From Mytilus edulis (taxonomy: Eukaryota), in the NCBI RefSeq assembly GCF_963676685.1, contig NC_092353.1:1612001-1676000 (forward strand): a DNA stretch of 64,000 nucleotides, given 5' to 3'. Under the pieces are notes generated by a model. That model was not told where the DNA came from. It ran no database searches and saw nothing but the letters and a program-made list of their open reading frames with translations. The position numbers and the translations under genes are program-made. The first letter of the stretch is position 1. Each line of letters starts with the position of its first letter. This document shows positions 17,979 to 33,606 of the stretch, in pieces.

Positions 17979-19059
17979 TATTGTTAATTTATTTAACATC
18001 ATTGAACTGATCAAAACGAAAACATTAATATTAAATGTTAGTATTAAAGTACTTAAAAAAGTAGAATATACCTGCCGACTATTGAAGTGCTTTTCCCAAG
18101 TAAACCTTGGTGGTTTTACTGGTAATTGTCAAAAGATGGTGAACAATTTATAGCTAATGACATGGGATACAGAACCATACAAGTCTAATTGACCACCTCT
18201 ATAAGTCTTTAATTCATTTCATGTTTGCAAATTAGAAATAAAGTCTAATTACCTTTTTACATCTTCAGTATTAAAATATCCAAAAAAATGAAACCTCTTA
18301 GTCTCAGAAATTCATGTTTCACATTCAACAGTAATGAACAGTGGGTTATGAGGTTTTGTACTTTAATACATTTAAATGGAATATCAGTATAAATGTTGAT
18401 ATAATGATCAGAGTGACAACAAATTAGGTATCTATGGTGAGAACTATGTGGTTATTACATTCAAAATACTATCATTTATAAATAACACCATTCATAAAAA
18501 AAGAATTGTTGTAAACTTAAAATTGAAGTTGTTTAAAATGGTCATAGAAGCCTAAAACATGAATAAAAAACGTGTCCATCATACAAAATGTTTTATATAC
18601 CAGGAGTAATGATGGTATTAGATGAACTGTATCTGAACTGTTACATTGTGTATTGAAAGTCCACTTTTTTTATTGTTAGAGGAAGAGATGTTTTTGGGTA
18701 AACTGATTTTTTAAATGTTAGTTCATATACCTTTTGTAAGTTTATTGATCAAGATTAAAAAGACAGAGGATTTGGATCTCACAAGACTAATTTAACCCTG
18801 CCAGGTCTTTGTGCTTGTCCCAGTCAACATTACATTTTTCCACAGACAGACAGACATAATTCTGGGGAAATCTTAACACATCCTTTTGTAGGGACACCTC
18901 CCTATGTTTATTTGAGAACTGTTGGTTTATCTTCAAAACTTAAAGCTTTGAAGTAAAATTATGTTTATTTGATAGATTTTGAACCAACACACAATATATG
19001 ATATGATCTGATATGTAAAAATAAACATGAGTAATTAATTATTGTTTCTTTATTTTCAG

Positions 19060-22000
19060 TTATTACAACTTAGATGATACAGATCATGACAGTATTAACA
19101 AGTTTTTGTCCAAGTTGGTGGAGCGAGCTCTGTATGAGCTGGAGTGCTCCTATTGTATTGCAGTGGGAGAGGTATGTACAAGTTCTTATCCAAGTTGGTG
19201 GAGCGAGCTCTGTATGAGCTGGAGTGCTCCTATTGTATTGCAGTGGGAGAGGTATGTACAAGTTCTTGTCCCAGTTGGTGGAGTGAGCTCTGTATGAGCT
19301 GGAGTGCTCCTATTGTATTACAGTTGGAGAGGTTTGTACAAGTTCTTGTCCAATTAATGGTTTCACAAGCTCTGTATGAGCTGGAGTACTCCTATTGTAT
19401 TGCAGTGGGAGAGGTATGTACAAGTTCTTGTCCAAGTTGGTGGAGCGAGCTCTGTATGAGCTGGAGTGATCCTATTGTATTGCAGTGGGAGAGGTATGTA
19501 CAAGTTCTTGTCCAAGTTGGTGGAGCGAGCTCTGTATGAGCTGGTGCTCCTATTGTATTGCAGTGGGAGAGGTATGTACAAGTTCTTGTCCAAGTTGGTG
19601 GAGCAAGCTCTGTATGAGCTGGAGTGCTCCTATTGTATTGCAGTGGGAGAGGTATGTACAAGTTCTTGTCCAAGTTGGTGGAGCAAGCTCTGTATGAGCT
19701 GGAGTGCTCCTATTGTATTGCAGTTGGAGAGGTTTGTACAAGTTCTTGTCCAATTAATGGGTTCACAAGCTTTGTATTCATGAGCTATCGAGTTCTTTTT
19801 GTTTTGTATTTTGAGAGATATGTTGATACCCCGAGTTATTAAGGACATTTTCTATCATCTGGTTAATAGTCATTTGTATGAGCCTCAGCACTCTTCATGT
19901 ATTGGGGGTAGACGATACATACTATAAAACTTGTCCTTAGTTGGTAAAACGACCTCTGTATTATATTCAGTGTTCTTATATTGTATGGCTGATACTTAAT
20001 CTGCTCTGGAAATGATTAGTTGTTACAAAATATTAGAAGTCTTTATACAGATAGGATAAATACTTGATCAGTGTTATAACAAATAAGAATGGATTGCAAT
20101 AAATACAAATCAGACATAAGATTTTCTGCATGCATGTGAAAGATTTAACTGCTACCTCATTACTTTTAATATTAATATGTTCTTGTTTCAGGACAACAGA
20201 ACCATAGACCCACAAACACTAGGTAGAATATCATCATATTATTATCTCAACCACAACACAGTACGCATGTTTAGAGATGAACTCAAACCAGAAAGTTCTA
20301 TAGCAGAACTGTTGGATGTTTTATCTGTAAGTACATAACTTAGGGTGAATGGAAAAATCCTGATTTTTTGGTTGTGTGGTTTAACTTTATTTTGACTCAA
20401 TCAAATGTTATGAAACATATACACAATGCTTATTTATACCAACATGACCAAAAAATCAAATCAAGCTCGAATTTTTATAGCATCACTTTTACTGTTCTTG
20501 AGTTATGGCCCTTTATCTGTAAATACTGTTGAATTTTTCATTTATTTATTTTGCCTCAATCAAATGTTAAAAAACTTATACACAATGCTACACCATAAAA
20601 CACAGATTTCAAGCAGTCACTCTTGAATTAAGTATGAACTTTTAAGTGATTGCAATAGACAGTTACAAGGAAAAGAATTTGAATTACAAAGAAAAGAGTT
20701 CTTTGATAACTGTTCATGTCTTGTTTTCAGTGAGGGCCTTCCGGTATTCTGAAAGATGCATAGAATTAACTTTGTATTAATTTGATTATATTTATTTCAG
20801 AACGCTAATGAGTATGATGAGTTACCTGTCAGACATAATGAAGATCAGCTTAACAGGTAAATGCATCCAAATCTATTTTAATATGTTATTGTAAATAGTG
20901 TAAGCATGTCACTGATTCAGTTTGCTTCGTTCTTTTACGCCAATTTAATAGTGCGTTTATTAATTAGAATATTTGCCTTTACCTAGAGTGCTTCGATCCA
21001 AAACCATTACCATATTTGTCCTATCGCTTGTGGTGAAATATTTAGGCTAAAAGTCTATTCTGTGGTAAAATTAGTATTAATTCAAGCCCCCATTAATTAT
21101 TTCTTAAATTAATGAGATAACTTTTAGTCTAGCAGTATGTGTTTCTACACACATTTCTCTTATACAGAATGATCAGTCAATTGTTTTTAAATAATAGGTT
21201 AAAAATCTTACAAAGAAAAGTAATTGACAGGATTTTGTCAGCAGCTCAACAATGATGAGTTTTATTCATGTGTGCTTTCAAAGTCTGTCAGATGTGTACT
21301 TTCTGTTTTCCAATACTTTGAATGACAATTTGGGTATGCTAAACAGCCCATCTCATGGCATTTTATTTCAACTGAATTTTATTGTTGTTTATATTTTATT
21401 TATTTAGTGAGCTTGCCAAGAAGTTACCTGTGGAAGTTAATCAGTACACATATGACTCGGCCCATACAAAAGCCAATCTGTTGTTACAGGCTCATTTTGG
21501 ACATGGTCAGGTTGGACTACCATCTACAGATTACAACACTGACACCAAGTCTGTTTTAGATCAGGCTATTAGAATATTACAGGTAAGGAAAGGCCCATGG
21601 TCATGGTCTCCATTAATAATTACAACACTAGCTTAGTTTTTGACGCATTTTTTAATTTTTCTCAGGAAGTACATTTTTAATGGAAAAATAAAAGTGTAAT
21701 GGTTCTGGTAATTGATGCTTCATAGAAACATAGAAATAAAACAAACACTTCATGATAATTTTATTTCTAGGCAATGTTAGATGTATCAGCTGATGAAGGC
21801 TGGTTAGTAACATCGTTAAGGATTATGCAGATGGTTCAAATGGTTATTCAAGGTCTCTGGTGTCATGACAACAATCTTTTGACCTTGCCACACATGATGC
21901 CTTACCACCTTGCTTGTTTTAGGTAGGTAGCCATAGCAACTATCTTTCTGCCATTGTCTCCAAAAGCTCATTTTCACACTTGAAGCACATTGTTCTTTTA

Positions 22001-25000
22001 CCATACAATAAGTTCTGTCACAACACAAGTTGCACAATCTCAAATATAAAAATAAGTTGCACAATCTTAAATATAAAAAATAATTGCACAAGCTCAAACA
22101 TGAACACAAGTTGCTTTCATATTTAAAAACAAGTTGCACAATCTTAAATATAAAAACAAGTTGCACAGTCTCAAATATAAAAACAAGTTGCTTAAACTCA
22201 AATATAAAACACATTCAATAAACCCTAAACCAGAAATGTTTGAGTGAATGTTTCTAACTATAATTCCAGGCCATGGAAAGGACATGGAGCTAAGAAGAAA
22301 GGATATCCTGACATAAAGAGCCCTATAGAAACTCTGCCTCAATTAATGGCTGTTTGTGATGGAAGGTTTGAGGCACTTAATGCTATGTTAGGGGAAGAAA
22401 TGGACAGAGCACATCTGGAACAAGTGAGATTTAATAAGACTACCATTTTTTTAATCTTTCAAATTGGAACGTTTTGTAATAAATAACCAGAAACAATATC
22501 AGATTATATAAAAATGCTTGTCTAATCATTGAACAAATGCTAAAATATCATTAGCAGCCATATTGTACCATATCTTAGGGATCACCAAAATCTAAAATCT
22601 AAACTTTAATTTGGTTGTCTTTGACATGTTGCATTTTCTCTAATTGCATTCTTGTTTTTATACGACCGCAAAAATTTAAATTTTTTGGTCGTATATTGCT
22701 ATCACTTTGGCGTTGTCGTCGTCGTCCGAATACTTTTAGTTTTCGCACTCTAACTTTAGTAAAAATGAATAGAATTCAATGAAATTTTAACACAAGGTTT
22801 ATGACGACAAAAGGAAGGTTGGGATTGATTTTGGGAGTTTTGGTCCCAACATTTTAGGAATTAGGGGCCAAAAAGGGCCCAAATAAGCATTTTCTTGGTT
22901 TTCGCACTATAACTATAGTTTAAGTGAATAGAAATCTATGAAATTTTGACATAAGGTTTATGACCACAAAAGGACGGTTGGGATTGATTTTGGGAGTTTT
23001 GGTCCCAACAGTTTAGGAATTTTAAAAGGGCCAAAAAAGGGCCCAAATAAGCATTATTCTTGGTTTTCGCACAATAACTTTAGTATAAGTAAATAGAAAT
23101 CAATGAAATTCAAACACAAGGTTTATGACCACAAAAGGACGGTTGGGATTGATTTTTGGAGTTGAGGTCACAACAGTTTATGAATTAGGGGCCAAAAATA
23201 GGCCCAAATAAGCATTATTTTTGGTTTTTGCACCATGACTTTAGTATAAGTAAATAGAAATCTATGAAATTTAAACACAAGGTTTATGACCATAAAAGGA
23301 AGGTTGGGTTTGCTTTTGGGAGTTTTGGTCCCAACAGTTTAGGAATAAGGGGCCCAAAGGGTCCAAAATTGAACTTTGTGTGATTTCATCAAAAATTGAA
23401 TAATTGGGGTTCTTTGATATGCCGAATCTAACTATGTATGTAGATTCTTAATTTTTGGTCCCGTTTTCAAATTGGTCTACATTAAGGTCCAAAGGGTCCA
23501 AAATTAAACTTAGTTTGATTTTAACAAAAATTGAATCCTTGGGGTTCTTTGATATGCTGAATTTAAAAATGTACTTAGATTTTTAATTATTGGCCTAGTT
23601 TTCAAGTTGGTCCAAATGGGGGTCCAAAATTAAACTTTGTTTGATTTCATCAAAAATTGAATAAATGGGTTCTTTGATATGCCAAATCTAACTGTGTATG
23701 TAGATTCTTAATTTTTGGTCCAGTTTTCAAATTGGTCTACATTAAGGTCCAAAGGGTCCAAAATTAAACTAAGTTTGATTTTAACAAAAATTAAATTCTT
23801 GGGCTTATTTGATATGCTTTATCTAAAAATGTACTTTGATTTTTGATTATGGGCCCAGTTTTCAAGTTGGTCCAAATCAGGATTCCATATCAAGTATTGT
23901 GCAATAGCAAGAAATTTTCAATTGCACAGTATTGCACAATAGCAAGAAATATCTAATTGCACAATATTGTGCAATAGCAATTAATTTTCAATTGGAGTTA
24001 TCTTTCTTTGAATAGAATAGTAGTTGATAATATATGTTGGAAATTTGCCAGACATGACTATGATGTCATTTTCTATTTTTATTTGCCAATAACTTTATGT
24101 AAATAACTTCATTGGAAATTTGCCAATATAAAATGTTGCTGATGAAGCTTTTTTTCCTTATCTTATCTAAAATGTTTTTAGATAATGTATGGTGGACATT
24201 TGCCAGACATGACTATGATGTCATTTTCTATTTTTATTTGCCAATAACTTTATGTAAATAACTTCATTGGAAATTTGCCAATATAAAATGTTGCTGATGA
24301 AGTTTTTTTTTATTGTTTTATACAATAAACAATGTATATTCACTTTTACTACCAACCAATCTTTACCATTCAGTGATAACAAGCACTTTATTTTACATTT
24401 TAATATTTTATGATGTATTTAAAAGAGTAGTTATTGTTGCAAACTCCATTAGAAATTTGAATTGATATCAGTTTTGGAAAAAGGGAAACGGGGATGTGAA
24501 AAAAAAGGGGGGGGGGGTTAAATTTTTCTCATTTCAGATTTCTTTAATTGATTTGTAAAATCTTGACATTTGTTTTGTGTAAAAAAAACCATGTAATGTC
24601 AAAATTTGATCACAATCCAAATTCAGAGCTGTATCACGCTTGAATGTTTTGTCCATACTTGCCCCAACTGTTCAGGGTTCGATCTCTGCGGTTGTATAAA
24701 GCTGCGCCCTGCGGAGCACCTGGTTATAGATTAAAATGTTGGTTTTCCTGTTTGAGTTGTTTTACACTAGTCATTTTAGGGCCTTTTATATTTTCCAGCA
24801 CTGTGTTAAAGGCGGTACTTTTACCTTAATGGTTTACTTTTTACACATTGTGACTTGGATGAAGAGTTGTCTCATTGGCACTCAGCCCACATCTTCTTAT
24901 ATCTTTTTGTTTGGATCTTGAATTTTAGTTTTTATTAGGAATACTAGAATTGCCAGTGAAATCAAGGTACAATTGGACAAGTGTTGAAACAATAAGTAAG

Positions 25001-28000
25001 AGGCAGTACTTCGAATATGTTTTTGCGAAAAACGAAAAGGAATAAGTCACGGATTGAAAACTGTCTCCAAATTTGGATCTTTTCTCAAAACTTGGTGTTT
25101 CCTGTGGATAAAAGATTGTTTCAAAGACAAATTAAGGAAGTACTAAACACTACATTTATAATGTCATATCACAAATATTTCCAACTTTGTATATTTTAAG
25201 AGGAATTTCAGCTCAAAGAAATCCGTCTTTTCCTTTAGTAATATAGATATAGACTTGTGGGATAGATTATGCCAAGAAATGTTCATTATTATATCCTTTG
25301 TTTCACAGATATACCAGACCATTAGTAAACTTCCCCAGATTTCTGTAAAATTATCTCTAGAAGGTTGGTGGGAGGGAGGAACAGGAGAACAGGAAAAACG
25401 GCCTATACATTCACCTTTACCAGGTAAGTTAATAATCTATAGAAGGTTGGTGGGAGGAAGGAACAGGAGAAACGACCTATACCTTCACCTTTACCAGGTA
25501 AGTTAATTATCTATAGAAGGTTGGTGGGAGGGAGGAACAGGAGAAACGACCTATACATTCACCTTTACCAGGTAAGTTAATTATCTATAGAAGGTTGGTG
25601 GGAGGAAGGAATAGGAGAACAGGAGAAACGACCTATACATTCACCTTTACCAGGTAAGTTAATTATCTAAAGAAGGTTGGTAGGAGGGAGGAACAGGAGA
25701 AACGACCTATACCTTCACCTTTACCAGGTAAGTTAATTATCTCTTAGAAGGTTGGTGGGAGGGAGGAACAGGAGAACAGGAGAAACGGCCTATACATTCA
25801 CCTTTACCAGGTAAGTTAATTATCTATAAAAGGTTGGTAGGAGGGAGGAACAGGAGAAACGACCTATACCTTCACCTTTACCAGGTAAGTTAATTATCTC
25901 TTAGAAGGTTGGTGGGAGGGAGGAACAGGAGAACAGGAGAAGCGACCTATACATTCACCTTTACCAGGTAAGTTAATTATCTATAGAAGGTTAGTGGGAG
26001 GGAGGAACAGGAGAACAGGAGAAACGACCTATACATTCACCTTTACCAGGTAAGTTAATTATCTATAGAAGGTTGGTGGGAGGGAGGAACAGGAGAAACG
26101 ACCTATACATTCACCTTTACCAGGTAAGTTAATTATCTAAAGAAGGTTGGTAGGAGGGAGGAACAGGAGAAACGACCTATACCTTCACCTTTACCAGGTA
26201 AGTTAATTATCTCTTAGAAGGTTGGTGGGAGGGAGGAACAGGAGAACAGGAGAAGCGACCTATACATTCACCTTTACCAGGTAAGTTAATTATCTATAGA
26301 AGGTTAGTGGGAGGGAGGAACAGGAGAACAGGAGAAACGACCTATACATTCACCTTTACTAGGTAAGTTAATTATCTAAAGAAGGTTGGTAGGAGGGAGG
26401 AACAGGAGAAACGACCTATACCTTCACCTTTACCAGGTAAGTTAATTATCTCTTAGAAGGTTGGTGGGAGGGAGGAACAGGAGAACAGGAGAAACGGCCT
26501 ATACATTCACCTTTACCAGGTAAGTTAATTATCTATAGAAGGTTGGTGGGAGGGAGGAACAGGAGAACAGGAGAAACGGCCTATACATTCACCTTTACCA
26601 GGTAAGTTAATTATCTATAGAAGGTTGGTGGGAGGGAGGAACAGGAGAACAGGAGAAACGACTTATACATTCACCTTTACCAGGTAAGTTAATTATCTAT
26701 AGAAGGTTGGTGGGAGGGAGGAACAGGAGAACAGGAGAAACGGCCTATACATTCACCTTTACCAGGTAAGTTAATTATCTATAGAAGGTTGGTGGGAGGG
26801 AGGAACAGGAGAACAGGAGAAACGACTTATACATTCACCTTTACCAGGTAAGTTAATTATCTATAGAAGGTTGGTGGGAGGGAGGAACAGGAGAACAGGA
26901 GAAGCGACCTATACATTCACCTTTACCAGGTAAGTTAATTATCTATAGAAGGTTGGTGGGAGGAAGGAATAGGAGAACAGGAGAAACGACCTATACATTC
27001 ACCTTTACCAGGTAAGTTAATTATCTATAGAAGGTTGGTGGGAGGGAGGAACAGGAGAACAGGAGAAGCGACCTATACATTCACCTTTACCAGGTAAGTT
27101 AATTATCTATAGAAGGTTGGAAGGAGGAAGGAATAGGAGAACAGGAGAAACGACCTATACATTCACCTTTACCAGGTAAGTTAATTATCTATAGAAGGTT
27201 GGTGGGAGGGAGGAACAGGAGAACAGGAGAAACGGCCTATACATTCACCTTTACCAGGTAAGTTAATTATCTATAGAAGGTTGGTGGGAGGGAGGAACAG
27301 GAGAACAGGAGAAACGGCCTATACATTCACCTTTACCAGGTAAGTTAATTATCTATAGAAGGTTGGTGGGAGGGAGGAACAGGAGAACAGGAGAAACGAC
27401 CTATACATTCACCTTTACCAGGTAAGTTAATTATCTATAGAAGGTTGGTGGGAGGGAGGAACAGGAGAACAGGAGAAACGGCCTATACATTCACCTTTAC
27501 CAGGTAAGTTAATTATCTATAGAAGGTTGGTGGGAGGGAGGAACAGGAGAACAGGAGAAACGGCCTATACATTCACCTTTACCAGGTAAGTTAATTATCT
27601 ATAGAAGGTTGGTGGGAGGGAGGAACAGGAGAAACGGCCTATACATTCACCTTTACCAGGTAAGTTAATTATCTATAGAAGGTTGGTGGGAGGGAGGAAC
27701 AGGAGAACAGGAGAAGCGACCTATACATTCACCTTTACCAGGTAAGTTAATTATCTATAGAAGGTTAGTGGGAGGGAGGAACAGGAGAACAGGAAAAGCG
27801 ACCTATACATTCACCTTTACCAGGTAAGTTAATTATCTATAGAAGGTTGGTGGGAGGGAGGAACAGGAGAAGCGACCTATACATTCACCTTTACCAGGTA
27901 AGTTAATTATCTATAGAAGGTTGGTGGGAGGGAGGAACAGGAGAAACGACCTATACCTTCACCTTTACCAGGTAAGTTAATTATCTATAGAAGGTTGGTG

Positions 28001-31000
28001 GGAGGGAGGAACAGGAGAACAGGAGAAACGACTTATACATTCACCTTTACCAGGTAAGTTAATTATCTATAGAAGGTTGGTGGGAGGGAGGAACAGGAGA
28101 ACAGGAGAAACGACCTATACATTCACCTTTACCAGGTAAGTTAATTATCTATAGAAGGTTGGTGGGAGGAAGGAATAGGAGAACAGGAGAAACGACCTAT
28201 ACATTCACCTTTACCAGGTAAGTTAATTATCTATAGAAGGTTGGTGGGAGGGAGGAACAGGAGAACAGGAGAAACGGCCTATACATTCACCTTTACCAGG
28301 TAAGTTAATTATCTATAGAAGGTTGGTGGGAGGAAGGAATAGGAGAACAGGAGAAACGACCTATACATTCACCTTTACCAGGTAAGTTAATTATCTATAG
28401 AAGGTTGGTGGGAGGGAGGAACAGGAGAAACGGCCTATACATTCACCTTAACCAGGTAAGTTAATTATCTATAGAAGGTTGGTGGGAGGAAGGAATAGGA
28501 GAACAGGAGAAGCGACCTATACATTCACCTTTACCAGGTAAGTTAATTATCTATAGAAGGTTGGTGGGAGGGAGGAACAGGAGAACAGGAGAAACGGCCT
28601 ATACATTCACCTTTACCAGGTAAGTTAATTATCTATAGAAGGTTAGTGGGAGGGAGGAACAGGAGAACAGGAGAAACGGCCTATACATTCACCTTTACCA
28701 GGTAAGTTAATTATCTATAGAAGGTTGGTGGGAGGGAGGAACAGGAGAACAGGAGAAGCGACCTATACCTTCACCTTTACCAGGTAAGTTAATTATCTAT
28801 AGAAGGTTGGAAGGAGGAAGGAACAGGAGAACAGGAGAAACGGCCTATACATTCACCTTTACCAGGTAAGTTAATTATCTATAGAAGGTTGGTGGGAGGG
28901 AGGAACAGGAGAACAGGAGAAGCGACCTATACATTCACCTTTACCAGGTAAGTTAATTATCTATAGAAGGTTGGTGGGAGGGAGGAACAGGAGAACAGGA
29001 GAAGCGACCTATACATTCACCTTTACCAGGTAAGTTAATTATCTATAGAAGGTTGGTGGGAGGGAGGAACAGGAGAAACGGCCTATACATTCACCTTTAC
29101 CAGGTAAGTTAATTATCTATAGAAGGTTGGTGGGAGGGAGGAACAGGAGAACAGGAGAAACGACTTATACATTCACCTTTACCAGGTAAGTTAATTATCT
29201 ATAGAAGGTTGGTGGGAGGGAGGAATAGGAGAAACGGCCTATACATTCACCTTTACCAGGTAAGTTAATTATCTATAGAAGGTTGGTGGGAGGGAGGAAC
29301 AGGAGAACAGGAGAAATGACTTATACATTCACCTTTACCAGGTAAGTTAATTATCTATAAAAGGTTGGTAGGAGGGAGGAACAGGAGAACAGGAGAAACG
29401 ACTTATACATTCACCTTTACCAGGTAAGTTAATTATCTATAGAAGGTTGGTGGGAGGGAGGAACAGGAGAACAGGAGAAATGACTTATACATTCACCTTT
29501 ACCAGGTAAGTTAATTATCTATAGAAGGTTGGTAGGAGGGAGGAACAGGAGAACAGGAGAAACGGCCTATACATTCACCTTTACCAGGTAAGTTAATTAT
29601 CTCTTAGAAGGTTAGTGGGAGGGAGGAACAGGAGAACAGGAGAAACGGCCTATACATTCACCTTTACCAGGTAAGTTAATTATCTATAGAAGGTTGGTGG
29701 GAGGGAGGAACAGGAGAAACGACCTATACCTTCACCTTTACCAGGTAAGTTAATTATCTATAGAAGGTTGGTAGGAGGGAGGAACAGGAGAAACGACCTA
29801 TACCTTCACCTTTACCAGGTAAGTTAATTATCTAAAGAAGGTTGGTAGGAGGGAGGAACAGGAGAAACGACCTATACCTTCACCTTTACCAGGTAAGTTA
29901 ATTATCTATAGAAGGTTGGTAGGAGGGAGGAACAGGAGAAACGACCTATACCTTCACCTTTACCAGGTAAGTTAATTATCTATAGAAGGTTGGTGGGAGG
30001 GAGGAACAGGAGAACAGGAGAAGCGACCTATACATTCACCTTTACCAGGTAAGTTAATTATCTATAGAAGGTTGGTGGGAGGGAGGAACAGGAGAACAGG
30101 AGAAACGGCCTATACATTCACCTTTACCAGGTAAGTTAATTATCTATAGAAGGTTGGTGGGAGGGAGGAACAGGAGAACAGGAGAAACGGCCTATACATT
30201 CACCTTTACCAGGTAAGTTAATTATCTAAAGAAGGTTGGTAGGAGGGAGGAACAGGAGAAACGACCTATACCTTCACCTTTACCAGGTAAGTTAATTATC
30301 TATAGAAGGTTGGTAGGAGGGAGGAACAGGAGAAACGACCTATACCTTCACCTTTACCAGGTAAGTTAATTATCTATAGAAGGTTGGTAGGAGGGAGGAA
30401 CAGGAGAACAGGAGAAACGGCCTATACATTCACCTTTACCAGGTAAGTTAATTATCTATAGAAGGTTGGTGGGAGGGAGGAACAGGAGAACAGGAGAAAC
30501 GGCCTATACATTCACCTTTACCAGGTAAGTTAATTATCTATAGAAGGTTGGTGGGAGGGAGGAACAGGAGAACAGGAGAAGCGACCTATACATTCACCTT
30601 TACCAGGTAAGTTAATTATCTATAGAAGGTTGGTGGGAGGGAGGAACAGGAGAACAGGAGAAACGGCCTATACATTCACCTTTACCAGGTAAGTTAATTA
30701 TCTATAGAAGGTTGGTGGGAGGAAGGAATAGGAGAACAGGAGAAACGGCCTATACATTCACCTTTACCAGGTAAGTTAATTATCTATAGAAGGTTGGTGG
30801 GAGGGAGGAACAGGAGAACAGGAGAAACGGCCTATACATTCACCTTTACCAGGTAAGTTAATTATCTATAGAAGGTTGGTGGGAGGAAGGAATAGGAGAA
30901 CAGGAGAAGCGACCTATACATTCACCTTTACCAGGTAAGTTAATTATCTATAGAAGGTTGGTGGGAGGGAGGAACAGGAGAAACGGCCTATACATTCACC

Positions 31001-33606
31001 TTAACCAGGTAAGTTAATTATCTATAGAAGGTTGGTGGGAGGGAGGAACAGGAGAACAGGAGAAGCGACCTATACATTCACCTTTACCAGGTAAGTTAAT
31101 TATCTATAGAAGGTTGGTGGGAGGGAGGAACAGGAGAACAGGAGAAACGGCCTATACCTTCACCTTTACCAGGTAAGTTAATTATCTATAGAAGGTTGGT
31201 GGGAGGAAGGAATAGGAGAACAGGAGAAGCGACCTATACATTCACCTTTACCAGGTAAGTTAATTATCTATAGAAGGTTAGTGGGAGGGAGGAACAGGAG
31301 AACAGGAGAAACGACTTATACATTCACCTTTACCAGGTAAGTTAATTATCTATAGAAGGTTGGTGGGAGGGAGGAACAGGAGAACAGGAGGAGCGACCTA
31401 TACATTCACCTTTACCAGGTAAGTTAATTATCTATAGAAGGTTGGTGGGAGGGAGGAACAGGAGAACAGGAGAAACGACTTATACATTCACCTTTACCAG
31501 GTAAGTTAATTATCTCTTAGAAGGTTGGTGGGAGGGAGGAACAGGAGAACAGGAGAAACGACTTATACATTCACCTTTACCAGGTAAGTTAATTATCTCT
31601 TAGAAGGTTGGTGGGAGGGAGGAACAGGAGAACAGGAGAAACGACTTATACATTCACCTTTACCAGGTAATAACAATTGTAACGCATTATAAAAACACAG
31701 TATTACCAGGAAATATAACTCTTTAGATAGGATTAGGGTAATTATAATGTGTTTTGATAGGTGGAGAAGATTTTGGGTTTAGTAAAGAAAGGCTTTTAGA
31801 ACTAATGGCCAGTGTGGCACCTAATACAAGTTCAAGGTCATATATCGTACACCTTTAATCATATAAATAAGCCTTTGACTGTTTTCTGCTCTTTGGTCAG
31901 GTAGTTGTATTTTTGACACATTCCCCATTTCCATTCTCAATTTTATGAAGTGCGGGAAAATAGGGTGGGTAAATTGATACATGTAAGTGATTCATGTTAT
32001 TGCTCTGATATTAGACAGCAACATATCAACATAATAAAACACAGAGAGACACACCAAGACAGCTAACCGTTGAGTCTTTATGAACTACAAGTGTCAAAAT
32101 CATTTGTCAGGCTTAAAATTGTCTAAAGTCTGACAAGTTTTTAGTGATTTGATTAGAGACTAAATTATCTACAAAAATGTAAAACATGCCAAAAGATTGA
32201 AACAATGATCATCATTAACAAGGCTTCCATTGCCAGTAGACATGACATTTAAGACTAGCTAATGGGAGTATTTAATCCACCGTTTTCACCTATTCCAATC
32301 AATTGAATGATAAGAAAAGTGATGTTTTTTTATACAGGTGCTAAAATACAGGATGATAATTGGATGGAGGTACATGCTGACCAAGAATATGTTCTGAGAG
32401 TTAATATGGACAGAATAAACAAAATAAAGGTAGAGTATGACAAAAATATTCACTCTTACTACCAGGTTGTATTAAGAAGGTGCGATTAGACCCTTTTTTG
32501 ACCAAAAAAAACAACATTATTACAAAATCTGTTAAGACATGAATATCCCTCCTGTATAAAGATTATTCATGGAGATTTTACAGTCAAGCATGCATGAATT
32601 AAAATTGTTTATAAATTATACTATAAATAACATTTTCAACACAGTGATTTTTTTCTTGACAACACAAAGAAAGGATATTTCAATGAAATCACTAACACAT
32701 TTATTGTATATTTTTTTAATCAACTTATAAAAAAATTAATGTAAATCTTATAATTAAAAGTTATTTGTTATAGTGAACAAAATGCCATAACAAGGTCCTA
32801 ATCTCAAATGATAACTTAGTTGCCTTTTGATGTTGCATTTATGTTGTCTCAAAATTCAGATAGAATTGTCTATCTTGGTCTGTAATGGGATTGTGATATT
32901 TATAAATGTTTAATCATTCACACATGTAAATATTAAAACTTTCTTCCAAATTTGCTGGGTACAATGAAGTGTTTCATTTTTAATTCCCAATGTAAAATGA
33001 ATGCTTTCTTTACTTCCAGTGCTCTCTAGCACTTTGATCTGTGTTTGGAGGTTTCTAGGTATACCCCACATTTGATCTGTGTTTGGAGGTTTCTGTCATA
33101 CTGAGGTATACCCCACATTTGATATGTGTTTGGAGGTTTCTGTCATACTGAGGTATACCCCACATTTCTTTTCTTCACATTAAAATCAGGGAAACAAATG
33201 AATTGTAATGAAATTCATTTTGAAGCAAAATCATTGATATATATAGCAAACATAATGTAACTCTAAGTATATGACATTTCAGAAGCATGACAGTAAAGCC
33301 TTTGCACCACGATTTCCAAAACCAAAAGACGAAGGATGGTTCCTATTAGTGGGTGACATAGAAAACAAAGAAGTTGTAGCATTAAAACGAGTGGGCTACA
33401 TCCGTGGTCGGTCCTCACAACAGATTGCTATAATCATGCCAGACATTGTAGGCCGTGTGATATACACTGTATATATGATGAGTGATTCCTATTTAGGACT
33501 AGACCAACAATATGACATATGTTTGGATGTGATACCTGCTAGTATAGAATCACAGGTCAACACAGAACTTGTCGGAGAACTAGATTTTGGTGACCTACAA
33601 TTGTAA
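19060..33606 (+). CDS. ASCC3: Activating signal cointegrator 1 complex subunit 3 (Ski2-like helicase), 3' portion (C-terminal Sec63 region); 5' exons lie outside the window
   Basis: Phase-compatible GT-AG exons: 19060-19171 (YYNLDDTDHDSINKFLSKLVERALYELECSYCIAVGE), 20192-20326 (DNRTIDPQTLGRISSYYYLNH...), 20801-20856 (NANEYDELPVRHNEDQLNS), 21408-21582 (ELAKKLP...HTKANLLLQAH...DTKSVLDQAIRILQ), 21771-21922 (AMLDVSADEGWL...), 22270-22423, 25309-25423, 32338-32429 (WMEVHADQEYVL) and 33283-33606 (PRFPKPKDEGWFL...MSDSYLGLDQQYDI, stop). The motifs match the C-terminus of vertebrate ASCC3. Confidence 0.96.
19099..19775 (+). repeat. Tandem array (~8.5 copies, 80-bp unit) of the 3' end of ASCC3 exon 19060-19171 plus its donor
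   Basis: Unit acaagttcttgtccaagttggtggagcgagctctgtatgagctggagtgctcctattgtattgcagtgggagaggtatgt; caagttggtg recurs at 19111 and 19191. Confidence 0.95.
22020..22212. repeat. 27-bp intronic minisatellite
   Basis: About 7 copies of aaacaagttgcacaatctcaaatataa. Confidence 0.85.
22655..24725 (+). mobile_element. Large HINE/Helentron-like element with two families of internal tandem repeats
   Basis: subTIR tttatacgaccgc / gcggttgtataaa, (GTC)n tract, four ~160-bp repeats followed by a second repeat family, and 3' hairpin gctgcgccctgcggagc. Confidence 0.82.
25345..31670 (+). repeat. Tandem array (~80 copies, 82/74-bp units) of the 3' end of an ASCC3 exon plus its 5' splice site
   Basis: Unit aattatctatagaaggttggtgggagggaggaacaggag(aacaggag)aaacggcctatacattcacctttaccaggtaagtt. 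The first copy is the real exon 25309-25423. Copy number is estimated from array length. Confidence 0.97.
33030..33166. repeat. ~47-bp tandem repeat x3
   Basis: Unit catttgatctgtgtttggaggtttctgtcatactgaggtatacccca. Confidence 0.85.

Follow-up and report, generated by a model that had tools for sequence, protein, structure and literature searches.

Tandem repeats that cross an exon-intron boundary with their end unit and carry further copies of a splice signal have been described as mirages in amphioxus, where they occur in Adh3, the globin genes BflGb6 and BflGb9, troponin C and PGBD5 (PMC3087553, PMC3902484). They are reported to be spliced normally, to be unstable in length and to undergo concerted evolution, and they have been proposed as a route to intron gain (PMC3087553, PMC3902484); their mechanism is called unclear (PMC3087553). 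Kindred arrays in human genes comprise the 37-bp VNTR in IVS7 of F7 and those of CBS IVS13, LMNB2, PDGF intron 4 and gene 6-16 (PMC1557585). The most upstream donor of these arrays is normally used, and the accessible text of that report speaks of 'several genes', not of a genome-wide class (PMC1557585). In a more general scheme, the Rogers model, introns are gained by tandem genomic duplication (PMC3296678, PMC3087553). A further report, judging by its accessible part, concerns a different minisatellite (PMC4039745). The literature searched, which included few subscription papers, held no bivalve report of such repeats and no genome-wide count; a count of splice-site arrays against a null expectation is what is new here.

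We examined an 80-bp array in the ASCC3 gene of the mussel Mytilus edulis, located in a 64,000-nucleotide stretch of contig C10 (the window, to which all positions lacking a contig prefix refer). The array belongs to the known mirage kind, as its end unit spans the boundary and the splice signal is repeated. It resembles the amphioxus mirages in being a minisatellite-like repeat of boundary copies (5' or 3' in amphioxus) with repeated splice signals, and in having homogenised inner units from which the outer unit is excluded (PMC3087553, PMC3902484). With the human F7 group it shares a first monomer that crosses the exon-intron junction and is followed by pseudo-donors, which are identical in the human arrays; the make-up of the unit differs, with 4 nt of exon and 33 nt of intron in F7 and 74 and 6 nt, respectively, in ASCC3 (PMC1557585). 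Compared with amphioxus as portrayed in the accessible text, the mussel differs as a host, in the counting of its arrays against a null expectation (4.4% of the splice sites sampled), in arrays reaching 22.5 kb and in carrying nine of them in one gene.

The preliminary description of this DNA related the array to the tandem-duplication model of intron gain. The resemblance stands, as in that model the mRNA is not altered by duplicating a segment that includes a splice signal (PMC3296678, PMC3087553), but the locus has one exon and one intron and no new intron: the array lengthens an existing intron at its 5' end, and no acceptor of a later copy was seen in use. A new intron running from the GT of a first copy to the AG of a later one was not found at the 80-bp array, as the whole exon lies in the coding frame and in an RNA-type contig and the exonic GT has a donor score of -0.8.

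An exon end and its donor are repeated in ASCC3

P0001, a M. edulis protein named ASCC3, is matched at 100% identity by the last exon of the gene (33283-33600), and tblastn placed ASCC3 exons on the + strand at 19060-19171, 20192-20326 and six other positions up to 33603. The remainder of the gene lies upstream of the window and reaches approximately C10:1,435,800. The coding exon at 19060..19171 (+ strand) belongs to a winged-helix domain (Pfam PF23445, E 4e-6), ends in phase 0 and has an acceptor score of 12.6; it matches residues 59-95 of P0001 at 100% and P0004 at 73%. The downstream exon at 20192..20326 (+ strand) is supported by tblastn, by an RNA-type contig and by an acceptor score of 13.1.

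TRF detected a repeat at 19098-19753 with a period of 80, 8.2 copies and 93% matches. Based on unit alignment and donor scores, it resolves into eight + strand units of 78-82 bp (19098..19737) with seven extra donor copies. The units start at 19098, 19178, 19258, 19338, 19420, 19500, 19578 and 19658 and measure 80, 80, 80, 82, 80, 78, 80 and 80 nt in that order. The unit is composed of the final 74 nt of the exon followed by GTATGT, in agreement with the exon-end-plus-donor structure first proposed for it. The first unit (19098-19177) crosses the boundary, and its intronic part is the authentic donor GTATGT (19172..19177, + strand). Donor copies are located at 19172, 19252, 19332, 19414, 19494, 19572, 19652 and 19732. 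The divergent GTTTGT units noticed earlier at ~19330 and ~19730 were recovered, with GTTTGT in place of GTATGT at 19332 and 19732, the ends of units 3 and 8. Among the seven extra donors five score 11.2, equal to the authentic donor, and two score 8.2.

A higher-order duplication had also been suggested, and we found a 97% match between 19144-19377 and 19544-19777 that corresponds to a 400-bp step. The 82-bp unit at 19338..19419 (+ strand) is chimeric, its 5' half resembling the decayed end unit and its 3' half being fresh. Because of this chimera and the 97% match, we attribute the 400-bp step to unequal exchange. The eight units lie within the originally proposed span of 19090..19775, but the array does not end there. 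A decayed ninth unit occupies 19738..19823 (+ strand; score 62, versus at most 30 in 300 shuffles), and the exon end recurs as an older, decayed copy at about 19930..19990 (+ strand; score 51, versus at most 34 in 300 shuffles). A possible further decayed piece at 19875..19922 (+ strand) is marginal, its score of 27 being reached by 4 of 300 shuffles. No comparable exon-end match was detected in the intron upstream of exon 19060-19171 (p 0.56). The decayed copies beyond 19775 indicate an age gradient in the array, fresh near the exon and decayed distally, and because of this distal decay the original start of the intron is no longer visible. Apart from the one chimera, the inner units differ by few letters while the ninth unit is decayed; the inner units thus show concerted evolution from which the outer unit is excluded.

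A 200-bp probe of the array matched the 1.37-Gb genome at its own locus only, among the matches listed, and the unit had no second place in 1.28 Mb of examined sequence. A dispersed, interspersed or transposon-borne satellite was rejected, as the unit occurs at one locus only in these two comparisons. A coding role for the array was likewise rejected, since reading frames across it reach stops. Pieces of the array were present in Logan contigs of all four DNA runs, which carry four other organism labels, and contigs from runs X4 and X5 contained the junction of the chimeric unit. No contig of the DNA runs crossed the whole array; in one X9 contig a diverged unit is joined to an intron of shorter length.

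Exon position 19102 is A in runs X4, X9 and X15, and the unit pieces there keep G, as does the exon of the window; exon position 19105 is C in other runs, as in all units. These variants could reflect gene conversion between exon and array, in either direction. At 8 nt upstream of its donor, corresponding to 19164-19171 in the exon, each unit also has a site resembling an acceptor (score 6.7-7.8). Acceptor-like site and donor together could define an out-of-frame 8-nt micro-exon, of whose use the RNA runs gave no sign.

The first donor alone keeps the reading frame

When each donor copy was joined in silico to exon 20192, the donor at 19172 alone left the frame open, and all seven later copies led to a premature stop. 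This supports the earlier proposal that such duplications survive through an intact first copy. A contig of X15, a run that we took to be RNA, is compatible with this donor: it covers ~19057-19170, as implied by the distances of variants to the piece ends, and its next listed piece is 20190-20326, the joint itself not being displayed. Depth over 19320-20111 was zero in all three RNA runs mapped, with a raw depth of about one read on the exon, and runs X21 (small RNA) and X24 had almost no exon reads. RNA mapping over 18000-25900 was dominated by high-copy repeats at 22.5-25.1 kb. These thin RNA data fit use of the first donor, and rare use of a later donor would escape detection.

A second donor array at 25 kb

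A second mirage, with units of 74-83 bp, extends over 25349..31670 (+ strand) and was seeded by the ASCC3 exon at 25309..25423 (+ strand). It contains 77 junction donors GTAAGT, which read GTAAGTT followed by the exon-derived AATTATC, and a last donor, GTAATA, at 31667 that reads GTAATAAC and is probably the original donor. The exon carries GTAA at 25345, 79 nt upstream of its donor. The preliminary description took GTAAGTTAATTATC for the donor of this array. That sequence is the junction, in which ATTATC derives from the exon; the GTAA common to the exon and the last donor GTAATAAC is real. Exon and last donor share GTAA only, and the junction holds three extra bases.

The donor now in use at the junction differs from the last, probably original, donor at 25424/31667 in the window and also at C4:15158519, C7:10549188 and C7:78722669. 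The swaps are GTAAGT versus GTAATA or GTAATG, GTAAGG versus GTCAGT, and GTAAAC versus GTAATA. It follows that duplication can replace the donor of a gene. Mirages also mislead gene prediction: approximately 1,000 residues of the public M. edulis ASCC3 model P0001 (1530 aa) are translated from the 25-kb array, and are an artefact of prediction.

Splice-site arrays are frequent in sampled exons

By itself the 80-bp array is ordinary, and the count of its surroundings is more useful. Exons were located with Pfam profiles of four families, and 316 of 356 rows were used (myosin 91/91, kinesin 118/127, SNF2 67/72, USP 40/66). The rows dropped were intronless or multi-exon matches, matches with many stops and duplicates on small contigs; one dropped SNF2 row (C1:5708623) later turned out to mark a genuine exon that carries a mirage. 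With the AMP-binding profile, which found mostly intronless genes, 0 of 15 rows were used. Splice sites were set by matrices learned from the 316 mussel exons, not by RNA, and arrays were called by TRF with a cut-off of 50. The survey covered 169 stretches and 956 kb, in which exons of the same gene are not independent.

Arrays enclosed 28 of 631 splice sites (4.4%, 95% interval 3.0–6.3%; one case doubtful), and 27 of the 316 exons, about 1 in 11, had one. In this family-based sample 13 arrays lay on donors and 15 on acceptors. Locus-specific arrays spanned a site in 26 of 166 cases, against 6.3 expected under uniform placement on collapsed stretches (p 5e-5), and interspersed arrays in 2 of 81, against 7.2 expected. 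The preliminary description had proposed a recurrent process and a comparison of TRF arrays with exon boundaries; on the sampled exons this comparison shows enrichment over random placement and bears the proposal out. For expanded locus-specific arrays (at least 3.5 copies, period at least 40) the count on annotated sites was 15 of 40, against 2.4 expected. The excess over uniform placement is therefore 4-fold overall and 6-fold for expanded arrays.

The remaining 25 expanded arrays had a strong donor on the strand of the gene in 12 cases and on the other strand in one (background 10% and 6%). Four + strand arrays that start beyond the first stretch were followed up, and three begin in an exon-like frame. 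When seven predicted array-start exons were compared with Pfam, four matched the host family, one of them weakly, and three had no match. The mirage share of expanded arrays, 15/40 on annotated sites, would become about half or more if unannotated exons were counted.

SNRNP200 has four mirages at the 29 exons found. ASCC3 has nine over ~42 exons, amounting to 35.6 kb of the ~210-kb gene; together with the 4.4% of sampled splice sites, this turns a gene-by-gene oddity into a measurable class. By inference there would be thousands of such arrays, which would provide natural experiments on how the first donor is chosen and on whether duplication leads to intron gain.

Individual arrays vary in form. 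At C10:1469758-1492269 an acceptor-side mirage with a 113-bp unit precedes one ASCC3 exon and extends for ~22.5 kb at 98% likeness. A 101-bp donor mirage at C10:1464478-1467260 is parted from its exon, which retains 33 nt of the unit, by a 1.2-kb insert carrying an interspersed repeat. In the acceptor mirage at C3:81095373 the polypyrimidine tract is nearly all exon-derived, with an intronic part of ~1 nt and 7 nt shared.

Breakpoints cluster near the donor

Breakpoint geometry was compared in 22 donor arrays, 13 of them found through the families, six from ASCC3 and three from SNRNP200. The intronic part of the unit was at most 7 nt in 9/22 arrays against 3.3 expected (p 0.002); four of the 22 values were hand-corrected from alignments, and the uncorrected count is 7/22. 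It was at most 10 nt in 12/22 against 4.5 expected (p 0.0003). Under a stricter detection bound the p values are 0.013 and 0.003, respectively, and the 13 family-found donor arrays alone retain the skew (KS p 0.0013). Breakpoints therefore do cluster close to the donor in the sampled arrays, which calls for a mechanism; the accessible text on amphioxus calls the mechanism there unclear (PMC3087553). On the acceptor side breakpoints are widely spread, with an intronic share of 0.02-0.82. The median intronic part was 6.5 nt in donor arrays of more than three copies versus 18 nt in those of two to three (p 0.0015, post hoc), and the rank correlation of intronic share with copy number was not significant (p 0.18).

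According to the preliminary description, such segments are bounded by a donor-like exonic motif, and in the 80-bp array exonic GTATTAACAAG resembles the donor GTATGTACAAG. One part of this resemblance is independent: the exonic GTATTA at 19092..19097 (+ strand), one 80-nt period upstream of the donor, shares GTAT (4/6) with it. The other part, ACAAG, is common to GTATTAACAAG and GTATGTACAAG by construction, because these are the first five letters of the unit. The two exonic GTs named in the description have donor scores of -0.8 (the site at 19092, not usable) and 0.1, compared with 11.2 and 13.2 for the real donors. As a general bound the motif did not hold up: an exonic GT stands exactly one period upstream in 1/22 donor arrays, the 80-bp array itself (background 5.7% each), and within 3 nt of one period in 10/22 (background 35%, p 0.21). 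We accordingly rejected it as a rule, a GT at one period being no commoner than background in this sample. Where the breakpoint falls inside the 6-nt donor, exon letters complete a good donor (GTAAGG, GTGAGA, GTAAGT, GTAACT), in one case without microhomology.

Microhomology of at least 2 nt was found in 8/12 near-intact boundary arrays (2.5 expected) and in 24/36 other arrays (p 0.84 between them). Its mean was 3.0 nt in boundary arrays (12/25) and 3.7 nt in the others (36/71), compared with 0.84 in simulated duplications; old arrays, whose ends have eroded, inflate these figures, and 13/25 and 35/71 arrays fell outside the range admitted to this comparison. Microhomology special to splice-site arrays was not seen, though eroded ends blur the comparison.

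Origin of the arrays

We think it likely that mirage minisatellites are born as short duplications across a splice site, grow by unequal exchange and stay silent through use of the first donor. The initial event would be a duplication of local sequence, broken at one end within the exon and at the other 0-6 nt inside the intron; arrays with intact ends in this genome typically have 0-7 nt of microhomology. Exon-proximal units are then amplified and homogenised as distal copies decay, as the unit alignment and the chimera show. Next comes a survival filter, passed by arrays with an undamaged exon and strong donor in their first copy, the later donors leading to stops in silico; where a breakpoint falls inside the donor, only junctions that rebuild a donor would persist. 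Such a filter would account for the donor-like look of the exon letters where the intronic part is short. Finally, the 4-fold excess suggests that units containing exon sequence have a higher rate of origin, expansion or persistence than intronic ones, because selection alone cannot lift counts above random. The simplest cause may be that exon-rich units expand readily and wholly exonic ones are purged; GC content is 39% in exons and ~32% in the window.

A bolder reading, towards which we are more sceptical than not, is that tandem duplication has its hot spots at the exon edges of mussels, affecting about 1 exon in 11 and breaking the intron in its first 10 nt, and that expanded locus-specific minisatellites inside genes come mainly from mirages. 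If so, boundary-linked mutation would inflate introns genome-wide and selection would only filter its products, with repair tracts slipping at the ends of haplotype homology, or splicing-coupled breaks, as possible mechanisms.

Exon edges might more specifically act as points of breakage or template switching, either because a drop in haplotype homology stalls repair or through splicing-coupled breaks at R-loop edges or paused polymerase. The 4-fold and 6-fold excesses over uniform placement, the donor-side clustering within 10 nt (12/22 arrays) and its persistence in the 13 family-found donors speak for this, and the X9 haplotype diverges in the intron adjoining exon 20192 by 18 letters and 25 gaps in 232 nt. 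Amphioxus is a highly polymorphic animal. Mirages are reported from it as well (PMC3087553). We nevertheless regard this explanation as unlikely, as microhomology equals that of intronic arrays, acceptor-side breakpoints are widely spread, and an expansion bias of GC-richer units could yield the same picture.

Still less probable is amplification driven by homology between the authentic donor and an exonic motif that resembles it. It would account for GTAT at donor-80 in the 80-bp array and GTAA at donor-79 in the 25-kb array, for the nine of 22 breakpoints within 7 nt of the donor, and for the true microhomology (AGTT, AGT, AACTT) that some young arrays have within the donor. It is at odds with the background frequency of exonic GTs at or within 3 nt of one period, with acceptor arrays being equally common (15 versus 13 in the family-based sample), and with several young arrays that lack microhomology, among them the ASCC3 84-bp array and a kinesin 120-bp array in which GT and exonic AAGGTC form the new donor. 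We give almost no credence to functional extra donors, acting as a switch to nonsense-mediated decay or as U1-binding decoys: five copies score as the real donor, all lead to stops, and second and third sites are reported to be used in human 6-16 and CBS (PMC1557585), but the array has no RNA cover at a raw exon depth of about one read, its units carry indels and decay, and mirages are too frequent and too varied in the mussel genome to suggest design.

Other features of the locus

Further upstream in ASCC3, at C10:1492351-1631058, introns of ~40, 46 and 49 kb are full of other arrays, including an 82-bp family in three blocks. Within the window, 22500-25100 is occupied by a very high-copy interspersed element with sub-repeats of 161, 135/260 and 35 bp; this element is also represented on both strands among the RNA runs and recurs in further ASCC3 and SNRNP200 introns. 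At ~61800-62400 the minus strand contains a 202-aa open frame with a bHLH-like stretch, putatively of achaete-scute type.
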